Positions 1 to 60,410 are shown, numbered from the whole stretch's first letter. The stretch: DNA of 62,716 nt, filler included, from Stramenopiles sp. TOSAG23-6 (GCA_900128565.1; 27 parts of 27 records of this genome joined end to end with filler, not necessarily neighbours in it), one strand, 5' to 3'. Program-made: numbers and translations. The notes: a model not told the origin generated them from the sequence alone.

Positions 1-60
1 TTTTTCGTACGAAATTTTGTACCTAACGATTTTTTTTTGAAATATTTTTCCAAAAAACAT

Positions 61-1586
61 GAAAGAGCCATATTGCGTCAATCTAATGAGCCTCAGAAGA
101 GTAATGAATATACCAAGGATAATATTGATTTTGGAATCCATGGAATTAAAACACTCCAATTGTATGTATGTTTTCAGCATGAATTTTAAATTTAATATTT
201 TTCATACGAAATATTGTACCTAACGATTTTTCGAAAACAAAAAAAAATATTTTTTTTCTAAATACAGGCAGGATTGTGTCATGAACTTAAAAGTGAGGTT
301 CGAAACGCGTTTCATTTTGAAGAAGATATCAGTGATCCAGGTACTGAAAAAAATACTGAAACCGAAACAGTTTTACAATATTTGCAACTAGGAGAGGAAA
401 ATCTCACCTATACGACATGTATGTTTTATTTTTTTTTCAAATTCAAATATTTTTTTCGTACGAAATTTTGTACCTAACGTTTTTTTTTTGAAATATTTTT
501 TAAAAATACATCCAGACCAATTGTAACACATGATGAAATATCTGAGCAATTATGTACAAAATTTAAAAAAACTATGGAAGAACTGCAAAAAAAGATTAAA
601 ACTATCAGAATTGCTGAACATGTAGAATACTTTATAAGACTTTATCAGTATGTATGTTTTATTTTTTTTTCAAATTCGACGTTTTTTTTTCGTACGAAAT
701 TTTGTACCTAACAAATTTTCAAGATTTTTTTTCAAATATTTTTACAAAACACATGGATCTCACCTTTTCAAACCTGCAAAAATAGTTTTCTACGAATTTA
801 TTATATGGATGACATATGTACGTTTTATATGAATTTCTAATGTAACGTTTTTTTCATACGAAATTTCGTACCTAACGATTTTAATTTTTGAAATATTTTT
901 TCATCATCCATCTCCATAGCTTTTCAGCAAGTAAATTTTACAAAAAAAGAGGATACTCAGGAAGAGGAAAATACAAAACAAAAATGGAGAGAATGACAAT
1001 TCTTAGATTACAAGCCATAGGTTGCGATAGGAAAACAATAAAAGAGAGAATTAAAATGCTTAGAGTACAGCCAACCGATATTGAATTAAATTCCCATTCT
1101 AAAGAAAAAAATAACCCTAACCCTTCCCATTCTAAAGAAAAAAATATTTCTTATGTTGAAACAAAAGAAACCAAAGTAACAGAAGATGTAGAATGTACTA
1201 GTAATCTGAGAGAGAGAGATTCCAGTTACACACCACCACCTTCTTTCAACGAATATAACTTCCCTTGTTTATTTTCGAAACCTTCAACAACAGCCAGCAG
1301 CCTTGTAGAGAAAACAAAGAAATCCGGCCTTTTAGAGGAAACAAAGACATCCAAAAGAGAAGGAAACAATAAAAAAACAAAGAAATCCGGCCTTTTAGAG
1401 GAAACAAAGACACACAAAAGAGAAGGAAACAATAAAAAAAAGAAAAAAAAAGAAACAAGGAAGAAAAAGGGGGAAAAGAAGACAGAAAGGGAAAACAGTA
1501 TGAAAAAAAAAACAAGAGGAAAAATAGATGGGAAACAAAAACAGTATGAAAAAAGAAAGAAAGAAAGACAAATCCTTAGAATATAA
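61..1586 (+). CDS. Multi-exon hypothetical protein, 3' part, with Lys-rich C-terminus (exons 61-165, 268-418, 512-651, 755-817, 912-1586)
   Basis: Open frame after removing introns 166-267 (GT-AG), 419-511, 652-754 and 818-911 (all GT-AT); TAA at 1584-1586. Confidence 0.7.
419..511 (+). other. GT-AT intron (family member)
   Basis: ACA T|GTATGT...AAAATACAT|CC AGA keeps the frame open; the next AG (CCAG) gives a stop three codons later. Confidence 0.75.
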
Positions 1587-1611
1587 TTGAAATAAAAGAT
1601 TTTATTTCAGG

Positions 1612-2192
1612 TTAAGTTTTCATTATCTTCCGTCATAGCTAAAATTTGATTAAACCGACGCTCCCAATCTTGCGAATCTTTTTTCTCTTTTATCAATAGA
1701 TTTTCAATCATTGTGAAAAAATATTTCCAAAAAAAAAAAACTAAAATTTGTTAGGTACAAAATTTCGTACGAAAAAAAAATAAATTCGAAATTGAAATGA
1801 AAACGTACAACCCTATCTAATTCAGTCCGTAGCGTGTCAATCATTTTTGTATTTTCTATGTGTAAGATATTTTTGTGCTTATTCATTTGTTTAATCTCAC
1901 TTTCAAGAGTCATTATTTTCATCTCTTGTTCCATTTCTTTCTGTTTTGCTTCTACGTTTTTTTCTCTCTCCTCAAGAAATGATCTGTGAAAAAATATGTC
2001 AAATTTGAAATTTGTTAGTTTTTATGAATAGTTTTTTTTTTTATGAATAGTACAATTTTTTTTTTCTGTTTTTTTTTTTAACAAAAATAACAAAAAAAAA
2101 CACAATGCATTTGAAATTCTTATGAAAATGTACTCGTTTTTTTCAATTTTGGCACTTCATTTTGTAAAGATTTTAATAATCGAATATCAGAT
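1612..2192 (-). CDS. Multi-exon coiled-coil protein, 3' part
   Basis: E/K/Q-rich exons (MEQEMKIMTLESEIKQMNK...) separated by minus-strand family introns; ends approximate. Confidence 0.45.
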
Positions 2193-2244
2193 GTATTTTG
2201 GAAAAATATTTCAAAAAAAATCGTTAGGTACAAAATTTCGTACG

Positions 2245-57975: not shown

Positions 57976-58043
57976 TGTTGTAAAGAATACATCAAATTCA
58001 CTTTTTTGTTAGGTATGAAATTTTGTATGTAAAAAAAAAATCG

Positions 58044-58078
<35 letters not shown>

Positions 58079-58203
58079 GGGTTAAAAATTTTTTTAAAAA
58101 AAANNNNNNNNNNNNNNNNNNNNNNNNNNNNNNNNNNNNNNNNNNNNTTAATTAATTAANNNNNNNNNNNNNNNNNNNNNNNNNNNNNNNNNNNNNNNNN
58201 NNN

Positions 58204-60410
58204 GATGAAGCTCGAGAATTTGAGAATAATCTGAGCCCAAAATCGTGTATGCTGTATTGTTCGTTACCGGTGCAGCATAAGGAATAAAACCTTTCATTTC
58301 CATACCATTCGACTTGCCCTCATCACGAGACATTGCTACCGCGACTGAGCCGCCAGGGCCCTGACTCATGTCAGGTTCAACCTTGGCTGTATTCATTGAG
58401 TACGCTTCTGAGGTTTATTGAAAAAAGAATTGTCGAAATACCAAATGAGATGAGTGGTTAAAATTCGAAAAGTCAACACAAATATCATAAATGACAGTAA
58501 GTCAAGGCAAGCAAGTGACACGAAATCCGTAAATTTCATGCCCGGAGAAATTGGGGATATTACACCGTGGACCGTTACGAAAAAAAGAGGAAAAAAAAGG
58601 AATCATAGAATAAAAACTGATCAGTACCTGCCCCAAGGTTATCAGTTGGCTTTTCTGCATATAAAGGACACCACGGAATCTTTTTACACATAATCACGGT
58701 GTACTGGAAAACTGGAAAGAATAATTATTATATAATGAGTTGTTGTATTGACCTCTGTTTCGGTTGTACTTGTGAAGGTTTAGCTTGTTGTGGTGCAGTA
58801 TGCTGTACCTGTTTGTCATCAAGAAAGCAACACCGACGAGATGATGAAGCGCATACATTCTGTTCGCGATTCTGTATCTGGTGTCAGTTTGCCTTTTATT
58901 GCATCATGGCTGGTGTAACAATGGTTTTAATCTTTATTATTGGAATGGCGCCGGAGTCCCTCGGTTTAGGTACGGCAAAGACAGGTGAAAATAATTGTAT
59001 CCAACAGCCGGGATGTGACGTCATAGTTCTTTCTATGTGTAATCCAAATATCTATAATTGTCCTGTAGACGATGATGATAATCCAGACACAGAAAAACCA
59101 TTCAATCCGTTTTTTGAAAAATCACTTTCAATACAAGGAGATGTAGTAAAAACTTGTCGAATATTTGAAAGATGTATGTTTTATTTTTTTTTTTAACAAA
59201 AAAATCGATTTTTTTTTCGTACGCAATTTTGTACCTAACGAATTTTAAGTTTTTTTTTTTGAAATATTTTTCAAAAATACATACGGTTCACATTGGACAA
59301 TTCCTGCTTCCTCAGATACATCAATGGAATCTACATTACGAAAAACAAAACCAGAGTTATTTCGAGATCGCACTTGCTCAGATGCATCTTCAGAAGCAGA
59401 TTGTGATATTCTTATTGGATGTAATTGTACGTTTTATGATGATTTTTTTTTACCAATTTTTTTTTCATACGAAATTTTGTACCTAACAAAACATTTTTAC
59501 AAAAAAAAATATTTTTTCAAAATACATGGAGTGGTTCCTGTGGGGGGATGATAACAAAATGTAATGATATCACAGATACAGGAAGCAATGCTGGAGTGAC
59601 TGCGCTTATTGTTATATTACTTATAGTTTTCATCGTATTTGTAGGGGTTGCTTTTATGCGTCATCGTGTAATTTTTCAAAATTGATTTTTTTTTTACCAA
59701 TTTCAAATTCATTTTTTTTCCTTATCAATTCTGTAACTAACAAATTTCGAATGTAAAATATTTTCTTCAATCCATACACTTTATCTATATGATGAAAAGA
59801 TGAAAAAACTTGCGGATGAGAAGAAGGACCATAATAAAGAAAAAGAAGAAGAAGAAGAAGAAGAGGAACCAAATTATTGCTTGGAATGTCCACCATTATG
59901 GTGTGTAAGATGCATGCCTACTAAAGTACGTAGCTCTTGTTGTGATGGTTGTTGTGATTGTGATGATGAAGAAGATGGAAACGTTAAAGCGACTGCCAAA
60001 GTTAGCCCCTTATCGCCAGAGGAAACAAAAGGTCCGCCTGAAAGAGGTGCCCAAATGTCAGACCCAAGAATGGGTGAAGTTGGTACAAATAAAATAAATC
60101 GACCTAATTTACAAATTTCTCCTGATTCTGGTCGTGGTGGTCTTGATGGACTAGGTGATGTTGGATTGATGCAATTATCGGGTGCAGTGCCTAGTTTTGC
60201 TACTAATGATATCAATCGTTCAAGTAGCATGGCAGATTTTCGACAAAAACAAATTGAACAAGAACAAAAAAATCAACTCTTACAAATGGAAATAACTCAA
60301 CTTCGAATGGAGCAATCTCTAAATAATAATGCAAATATTCAGAAATCAGCGAGTATGAACAATATAAATCAAATGGGTAGTCAAATGGGTATTCAGAGAT
60401 CAGCAAGTTT
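58204..60410. repeat. Redundant copy of contig 28030-30259
   Basis: Identical sequence, about 23 nt shorter at the 3' end. Confidence 0.95.

Follow-up and report, generated by a model that had tools for sequence, protein, structure and literature searches.

A MITE-like element family in stramenopile genes that probably gives rise to introns with GT and AT ends

Genes of Stramenopiles sp. TOSAG23-6 (GCA_900128565.1) are interrupted by a family of short repeated insertions that start with GT and mostly end with AT. We analyzed this family in a stretch of 62,716 bases, hereafter the window, and conclude that its members are probably introner-derived GT-AT introns. In other words, a family resembling miniature inverted-repeat transposable elements (MITEs) resides in stramenopile genes, and its removal by U2-type splicing would restore the coding sequence. 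The initial annotation of the window had proposed a genome-wide system of GT-AT introns, and the observation behind it is real: repeated GT..AT insertions do interrupt conserved genes, with 79 unique matches on 22 of the 23 unique contigs. Its interpretation stood in part. Exact removal from GT to AT is indeed needed for open frames and for colinearity with homologs; the introner nature of the insertions, and a boundary that in 24 of 31 curated copies is also compatible with AT-AC, had been missed.

The window is a pseudomolecule rather than a single locus. It consists of 27 contigs of 2206–2244 bp each, sorted by length and joined by linkers of the form N44-TTAATTAATTAA-N44 (the first at 2245–2344, then every ~2.33 kb), so that distances and neighborhoods across linkers are meaningless. 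Once duplicates were removed, the unique set comprised 50,089 bases on 23 contigs. Because it approximates a random sample, though a small one, of a fragmented assembly, it helps the genome-wide part of the claim. A profile built from nine full copies produced 87 matches in the window, including the 79 unique ones, which corresponds to 1.58 unique matches per kb and to 11.5% of the unique sequence. The host genes are unrelated (SF1 helicase, BBS8, TOP6B, ASCC3, DNA2 and others). Thirteen of the 46 contig ends fall inside a copy or at most 10 nt from one, and element repeats at contig ends are one reason why the assembly is broken. Words of the element core reach a depth of ~130,000 in the DNA of an independent metagenome run, whereas those of the ASCC3 exons reach ~5. 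As a rough estimate, this suggests a copy number of the order of ten thousand if one organism explains the depth, which sums over organisms.

The elements are 90–220 nt long and share the arrangement GTAYGT...TACCTAAC...T-run...CCAAAATAC followed by AT. The consensus derived from the alignment of the nine full copies is GTATGTTTTATTTT...(variable A/T-rich part)...TTTCGTACGAAATTTTGTACCTAAC...T-run...TTGAAATATTTTTCCAAAATACAT. In 30 of 31 curated copies, the 5′ site is GTATGT, GTACGT or GTAGGT, with the consensus GTATGTTTT (G at +5 in 32 of 33 matches, T at +6 in all 33). Terminal inverted repeats are only ~4 nt (GTAT/ATAC), and no autonomous partner was seen in the window. Between CTAAC and the 3′ end there are 34–61 nt (mode 44) in 27 of the 28 copies having this motif, with the T-run following it; in the 3′-truncated copy there are 26 nt. 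Two values stand out among these distances, 44 nt in 12 of the 28 copies and 34 nt in three. An AG stands ~8–11 nt after the branch-like motif in six of the seven curated introns having one. Intron lengths show no bias towards multiples of three (13, 10 and 8 for the three remainders among 31 copies).

Some members depart from this arrangement. Two-core tandem composites occur at 22648–22810, 39205–39421 and 43380–43480, and contigs from both DNA and RNA runs also show the 3′ end of one element abutting the 5′ end of the next (joint 35073 to 35248). Diverged copies at 34791–34800 (+) and ~43478–43470 (−) start with ATACGTTTTC instead of GTACGTTTTC, the first G being lost or altered; their 5′ junctions are unplaced.

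The ends of 31 complete copies were curated (Table 1). Thirty of them start with GT, and the last two letters are AT in 27, TT in two, AG in one and AC in one. When two diverged AG-ended copies (39819–39921 and 54709–54925) are added, 32 of 33 start with GT and the terminal pairs become AT in 27, AG in three, TT in two and AC in one. The initial statement that most copies end in AT is therefore borne out, although, unlike in a plain GT-AT rule, the 3′ end is not uniform: AT, TT, AC and AG all occur. The AG-ended copies are among the most diverged, with identities of 0.62, 0.59 and 0.40 versus a median of 0.76 for AT-ended copies (one-sided Mann–Whitney p = 0.009, n = 3 versus 27). AT-ended copies at identities of 0.45–0.54 also sit beside intact exons. 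We read these values as suggesting that AT ends are stably tolerated and that old copies slowly drift to AG. A direct repeat of 2 nt accompanies most insertions. Immediately upstream of the element, 22 of 31 copies carry AT, a pair with a window background of 9.9%; in 24 of 31, the upstream pair and the final two letters of the intron are identical. TT precedes each of the two TT-ended copies. A fixed AT flank fits target duplication or site preference alike.

Table 1. Curated copies of the element family in the window, with the dinucleotide preceding each copy and the letters at its ends; open-codon figures compare exact excision with the other two frames
Feature	Coordinates	Strand	Upstream pair	Ends	Remarks
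Element-intron	419..511	+	AT	GT..AT	52 codons open vs 19, 9
Element-intron	652..754	+	AT	GT..AT	Frame tie, next exon short
Element-intron	818..911	+	AT	GTACGT..CCAT	60 codons open vs 35, 28
SF1 helicase element-intron	3022..3131	-	AT	GT..AT	89 codons open vs 13, 12
Helicase element-intron	3288..3394	-	CT	GT..AT	AT-AC impossible; IIVST-VRSSS; AAA_12 continuous over junction
Helicase element-intron	3433..3560	-	AT	GT..AT	VDA/F/QG; 13-residue mini-exon next
Element-intron	3781..3898	-	TT	GT..TT	TT direct repeat; 100 codons open vs 21, 18
Diverged element-intron	4265..4377	-	AT	GTACGT..ATAT	AAA_11 profile 236 to 239 over junction
Element-intron	6374..6472	-	AT	GT..AT	
Element-intron	18751..18890	+	AT	GTAGGT..AT	
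Element-intron	19478..19577	+	AT	GTTGGT..AT	
Element-intron	21681..21791	-	AT	GT..ATAT	Frame tie
Diverged BBS8 element-intron	22167..22277	-	GT	GTACAT..ACAG	Canonical GT-AG; N342/V343/N344 of 6vbu_8
Diverged BBS8 element-intron	22382..22483	-	AT	GTTTGT..TTAT	D308-A309 of 6vbu_8
Composite two-core BBS8 element-intron	22648..22810	-	TT	GT..AT	KV/F/LK; V253/F254/L255 of 6vbu_8
BBS8 element-intron	22945..23073	-	GC	GT..AAAC	GT-AC, followed by AG; CAG 2 nt downstream out of frame; Y208/A209/D210 of 6vbu_8
TOP6B element-intron	25092..25181	+	AC	GT..AT	FK/R/RSKRMP; AT-AC gives TGA; 99 codons open vs 29, 14
Element-intron	25923..26047	+	AT	GT..AT	
Element-intron	29000..29108	+	AT	GT..AT	
Element-intron	29253..29353	+	TT	GTACGT..AT	Frame tie
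ASCC3 element-intron	35250..35378	+	AT	GT..ATAT	QY/I/GVTEK, no indel vs 5 homologs; DNA contig (X3) covers 3′ end
Diverged ASCC3 element-intron	35582..35668	+	AT	GTACGT..ACAT	TAG 6 nt downstream also in frame
3′-truncated ASCC3 element-intron	35989..36073	+	AT	GT..GAAAT	RPQY/ITS/GEG, length as DTS/DKF in 10 homologs
Element-intron	38550..38654	+	AT	GTATCT..AT	100 codons open vs 31, 19
Composite element-intron	39205..39421	+	AT	GT..AT	
Diverged element-intron	39819..39921	-	AT	GTATGT..ACAG	GT-AG
DNA2 element-intron	42160..42257	-	TA	GTACGT..AT	Followed by GTA; PL-VR; AT-AC turns conserved L to Y
DNA2 element-intron	42428..42541	-	AT	GT..AT	VT/C/MS; 61 codons open vs 10, 17
Element-intron	45251..45346	+	AT	GT..CCAT	99 codons open vs 18, 9
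Element-intron	49180..49286	+	AT	GT..AT	Frame test undecided
Element-intron	52194..52283	-	AT	GTACGT..AT	
Very diverged family member	54709..54925	+	AT	GTACGT..ACAG	GT-AG; missed by profile search
Variant copy	55351..55469	+	TT	ATATGT..TT	Boundaries unplaced

Comparison with homologous proteins shows that exact excision restores colinearity at the level of residues at seven junctions (four in BBS8, one in DNA2 and two in ASCC3). In BBS8 (contig c10), five consecutive exons correspond to residues 186–208, 210–253, 256–308, 312–341 and 345–379 of chain 6vbu_8. The gaps between them are filled exactly by split codons or unaligned edge residues, which fixes four introns at single-residue resolution. 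In DNA2 (c19), for which 5eaw was used as well, the QLSPL exon aligns to 5ean_A up to residue 798 and ISLFKRL aligns from residue 811; in the next exon, 12 residues precede ISLFKRL, leaving no indel across 42160–42257. Alignments of ASCC3 (c16) with 5–10 homologs are gap-free at 35250–35378 and 35989–36073. Against the AAA_11 and AAA_12 profiles, exons of the SF1 helicase (c2) line up colinearly: the VDA exon stops at AAA_12 position 146 and the VRSSS exon resumes at ~163, with the 13-residue mini-exon FQGAEKEVIIVST between them. Both exons of TOP6B (c11) match archaeal Top6B in the correct order; a lineage-specific insertion precludes a residue-by-residue check of this junction, and the frame test there is clear. 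All six junctions cited by the initial annotation (starting at 3433, 22648, 25092, 35250, 42160 and 42428) are as it described them. The name ZGRF1 that it gave to the helicase could not be confirmed, the protein being a UPF1-like helicase.

Reading frames agree with the protein comparisons. For 22 copies with ends taken strictly from the profile, we determined the longest open frame across the junction. Exact excision was the best option in 14 of the 22 copies versus one-third expected (p = 0.0035). Ties at 652, 21681 and 29253 come from a short neighboring exon, and the test was undecided for 45470, 49180 and 55351. The miss at 35250 results from a profile end misplaced by an internal duplication, as the true end, 35378, gives 64 and 73 open codons. 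The copy at 22945–23073 scored best 2 nt further on, and protein colinearity later fixed it as GT-AC. We also considered whether a nearby downstream AG could serve as the 3′ site, one of the outcomes that the initial annotation had named as contradicting its claim. The first AG is in frame in only five of the 22 copies, giving a long open frame in two and a shorter one in a third. A nearby AG is thus no general way out.

The copies are oriented predominantly in the sense direction of their host genes, as had been claimed initially. A crude test, which compared the two strands by their longest open reading frame (ORF) in the sequence flanking every one of the 79 unique matches, assigned 52 to the sense and eight to the antisense orientation and left 19 ambiguous (binomial p = 5e-9). 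Several of the eight antisense calls are artefacts of ORFs reading through elements, and clear antisense pieces are few, e.g. 4123–4174 and 21147–21204. The fragment at 4123–4174 (+) is located in frame within a minus-strand helicase exon (..QNSLGTKFGTKKSNSI..), in a region of ~40 residues that separates the AAA_11 and AAA_12 matches, and may be an exonised piece or an unrecognised intron.

A number of observations weigh against reading the family as GT-AT introns. Introns near-universally end in AG, and the U2-type terminal AG is present in only three of the 33 copies. Conservation of TACCTAAC, at least 95% across the 75–78 matches covering it, is biased upward because the matches were found partly through that core. 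When the pairs are permuted, 19.5 of 31 still match on average, so the agreement between flank and terminus derives mostly from AT on both sides, and locus-specific support for a true target duplication rests on the two TT/TT copies. In ASCC3, homologs are two residues shorter at 35582–35668, where TAG 6 nt downstream fits better than CAT. As the flanking pair equals the terminal pair in most copies, their cut is ambiguous by up to 2 nt, and in 24 of the 31 GT..AT, TG..CA and AT..AC introns would yield the same mRNA. The RNA data, for their part, speak neither for nor against splicing. Four metatranscriptome runs share small fractions with the window and, in those examined, nearly all of the shared words are element words. 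Contigs of RNA and DNA runs were compared on contig c16 only (RNA runs X6, X10 and X11; DNA run X3, an independent seawater metagenome). Apart from one 201-nt piece internal to an exon, the RNA contigs there consist almost entirely of element sequence; they include no exon–exon joint, and RNA cover of exons is almost nil. Element sequence is abundant in the RNA libraries, which retention, pre-mRNA or DNA carry-over could explain.

The ambiguity of the cut invites a different assignment of the same removal, with both ends placed 2 nt upstream so that the introns become AT...AC. In its favor, 22 of the 31 copies are flanked as AT-GT...AC-AT and would give an identical mRNA, and AT-AC is a recognised pair (PMC1557818). 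Both spliceosomes are known to accept it, through an interaction of the first A with the last C. The register is settled by seven copies with unequal flanks. In TOP6B at 25092, the −2 shift produces TTC AAA TGA, a stop codon, and in DNA2 at 42257 it turns the conserved L of QLSPL into Y; elsewhere, the intron would have to begin with CT (3394), TT (22810 and 29353) or GC (23073). The −1 shift fails at 25092, 42257 and 22277, whereas a +1 shift requires a G after the intron, and many copies are without one. These seven copies rule out both AT-AC and TG-CA as general rules. No register other than GT fits all 33 copies. Moreover, in the GT register, GTATGT is complementary to U1 at its conserved 5′ end, while a 5′ end of ATGTAT would pair poorly with it. 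We therefore consider AT-AC introns unlikely.

Independent DNA bears on two other explanations. Contigs of the X3 metagenome cross the exon–element borders at 35369–35608, 35603–35873 and 35868–36011 with the same terminal letters (CAT/TAT), which speaks against both an error of assembly at the CAT ends and elimination from DNA as the main form. Two further outcomes named initially as contradictory, reads with CAG in place of CAT and elements absent from somatic DNA, were thereby addressed: the independent contigs keep the CAT/TAT ends and retain the elements at all three borders. Ciliate-like excision of the elements from DNA, with the sequenced DNA being germline-like, would account for precise removal and for the short direct repeat at the ends. 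It would leave the strong sense bias without a reason, the standard genetic code yields long ORFs in the contigs, and no precise-deletion joint is listed among the X3 contigs on c16, although contigs can hide rare forms. We regard this possibility as extremely improbable. Only slightly more credible is the idea that the elements are never removed, the genes being dead, transposon-riddled copies or the product of single-cell assembly artefacts. In line with it, the assembly includes, as described below, a palindrome, duplicates of some contigs and an in-frame TAA. Against it, exons are open and conserved beside copies that are only 45–60% like the consensus, core single-copy genes are hit (ASCC3, DNA2, TOP6B and BBS8), the insertions are sense-oriented and the same sequence is present in independent DNA. 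That the GT-AT elements are removed at the RNA level is what we infer from four observations: their orientation is biased to sense, they carry splice-like signals, exons next to old copies are intact, and core genes are affected.

In the most probable reading, the GT-AT introns arise and are removed as follows. A non-autonomous, MITE-like ‘introner’ would insert into genes, reaching ~1.6 copies per kb in our sample. Each copy would supply a yeast-like 5′ splice site GTAYGT, the branch-site-like TACCTAAC and a T-rich tract. The element terminus, ...AAAATAC, would be followed by the second copy of a 2-nt target, usually AT. The pre-mRNA would be cut before the element GT and after the duplicated dinucleotide, removing the element together with one target copy. 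The resulting intron would be GT...AT, or GT...TT at TT targets, and the original coding sequence would be restored. We think that the major (U2-type) spliceosome acts here, tolerating a last nucleotide other than G, and that old copies may drift to AG.

A serious rival, even if a rather unlikely one, is that the minor (U12-like) spliceosome, perhaps with co-evolved small nuclear RNAs (snRNAs), removes the family, which would parallel the proposed transposon-driven spread of U12-type introns in Physarum. U12-type splicing tolerates GT-AT and AT-AN (PMC1557818), and the variable last nucleotide (T, C or G) would suit a 3′ site set by distance. The signals themselves point elsewhere. GTATGT differs at +5 and +6 from RTATCC/RTATCT (RTATCCTT; RTATCTTT in Physarum), in 27 of 28 copies the branch motif is separated from the 3′ end by 34–61 nt, compared with 10–12 nt in Physarum, and a T-tract follows the branch motif as in U2-type introns.

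Excision might instead be guided by pairing of the element ends (GUAU with AUAC) rather than by splice-site letters, as has been proposed for nonconventional introns of euglenids and introner elements of Amoebophrya. Three of six minimum-energy folds do contain a 4-bp terminal helix with a 2-nt 3′ overhang, the 3′ letters vary, and in the copy at 55351 an A replaces the first G while its pairing partner C has become T. Yet five of the six folds are no better than those of shuffled sequence (z from −0.17 to −1.11), the T/C variants at +4 have no compensating change, and strong GTAYGT and branch-like motifs are present; this explanation seems very unlikely. An Rfam search of the window gave no match.

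If U2-type splicing of GT-AT introns is accepted, a stronger version of it can be proposed, tentatively and with less than even confidence. The spliceosome of this free-living stramenopile may no longer read the last intron nucleotide, the 3′ junction being set by signals inside the element, namely the branch site together with spacing or the A at −2. AT, TT, AC and AG would then be used alike, and the CAG at 22945–23073 would be skipped. This would have allowed about ten thousand GT-AT introns to build up, with standard gene prediction broken for the lineage.

Introners, DNA transposons that generate introns, are known in Micromonas, Aureococcus, Chrysochromulina, dinoflagellates and others, and those of Chrysochromulina supply a 5′ site of their own while co-opting the 3′ one (PMC9860276; PMC11282704). 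The present family is alike in consisting of short multi-copy, sense-oriented putative introns in unrelated genes, where one splice site would come from the element and the other from the duplicated target, so that splicing would recover the original mRNA. It differs in that the co-opted target would be AT (sometimes TT) instead of AG, and in having a repeat of just 2 nt and inverted termini of just ~4 nt. Families with unfamiliar splice sites were retained in large introner surveys only given RNA support (PMC12130899), so a family such as the GT-AT one could be filtered out.

Similar non-canonical cases have been described. In Fritillaria borealis, MITE-derived introns take their 3′ end from a target duplication ending in AC or AT, and non-canonical introns are the majority genome-wide (PMC11282704; PMC13326754). 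There, however, the 5′ end is non-canonical too (AG-AC, AG-AT), and U2AF paralogs and changes of N6-methyladenosine (m6A) in snRNA have been shown, whereas here the 5′ site is a strong GT and the host is a protist. Amoebophrya, a marine protist, has repeated introns with direct and inverted repeats and non-GT-AG ends (PMC7789003). It has no dominant dinucleotide pair and its inverted repeats are 8–20 nt long, in contrast to GT-AT in 27 of 33 copies, very short inverted ends and clear U2-like signals in our family. GT-AT makes up 17% of the non-canonical U12 introns of Physarum, for which a TA-target transposon has been proposed as the source (bioRxiv 10.1101/2020.10.12.336362). GT-AT is a documented working pair in Physarum and animals, and the proposed Physarum source also has a 2-nt target. 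In these organisms, however, GT-AT introns are a small minority, mostly of the U12 type with RTATCY 5′ sites and a branch 10–12 nt from the end; here they are the majority and carry U2-like signals. A literature search of article texts, supplements being outside its scope, found no GT-AT-dominated system and no such introns in marine stramenopiles (MAST) or other stramenopiles. The word ‘intron’ is absent from the accessible text of two MAST genome papers, again with supplements outside the scope. Since introner-type introns are already known, the new aspect would be the dominance of GT-AT among them, provided that removal takes place at the RNA level. A pattern scan for the element core identified no locus in viral contigs and none among JGI metagenome contigs.

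Several features of the contigs themselves deserve mention. One 2235-bp contig bearing a CobW/COG0523-like gene is present four times (c5–c8, 9363–18602), c13 (28030–30259) is identical to c26 (58204–60410), and c12 (25700–27929) is a perfect palindrome of 2230 bp; the duplications and the palindrome are probably assembly or amplification artefacts. An in-frame TAA interrupts an ASCC3 exon at 37031–37033. At 37033 the independent DNA run reads T, which makes the codon TAT (Tyr), and TAA is therefore an assembly error or a rare allele. CCCTAA repeats at the end of c17 (39553–39570) suggest a TTAGGG-type telomere. A AAAAATAC-type microsatellite occurs at 43020–43140, 44150–44216 and 48800–48858; it is translated as NTK repeats in ORFs and is also found at contig ends.

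As to the organism, a run search located the window DNA in a small single-organism data set and in seawater metagenome runs. A 320-aa ASCC3 exon, used as a query in a protein database search, had as its best match the public gene model P0001 (eukprot:GSMAST32.ASY1.ANO1.1073.1), which tblastn showed to be encoded by contig c16 itself. This search returned only P0001 and no near-identical transcript-derived protein. Going by the label of P0001, the host is a MAST-3-type marine stramenopile.

The P0001 model illustrates the consequences for annotation. It starts inside one element, translates VCFIFFQIR from another, drops ITSGE and also cuts short in-frame pieces from conserved exons at forced GT-AG sites. 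Evidently, it was built with GT-AG-only rules, and prediction limited in this way fails on this genome. Gene counts, completeness scores and pseudogene calls in genomes with such introns could thus be too pessimistic. A study of uncultured stramenopile genomes mentions few predicted MAST-3 genes and pseudogenised dynein genes (PMC5778133).

If RNA data confirm the GT-AT introns, the way in which the splicing machinery of this organism recognises intron ends is unusual. The organism would then be a natural example of strong U2-like 5′ and branch sites combined with a non-AG 3′ end as a rule, and the reading of the last nucleotide would become directly testable through U2AF35, Prp8, Slu7, Prp18 and the contact between the first and the last G. 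The introner model would be extended as well, in that target duplication may supply a working 3′ junction even if it is not AG. Finally, old copies seem to drift to AG, and the family may therefore offer a time series of ‘canonicalisation’.

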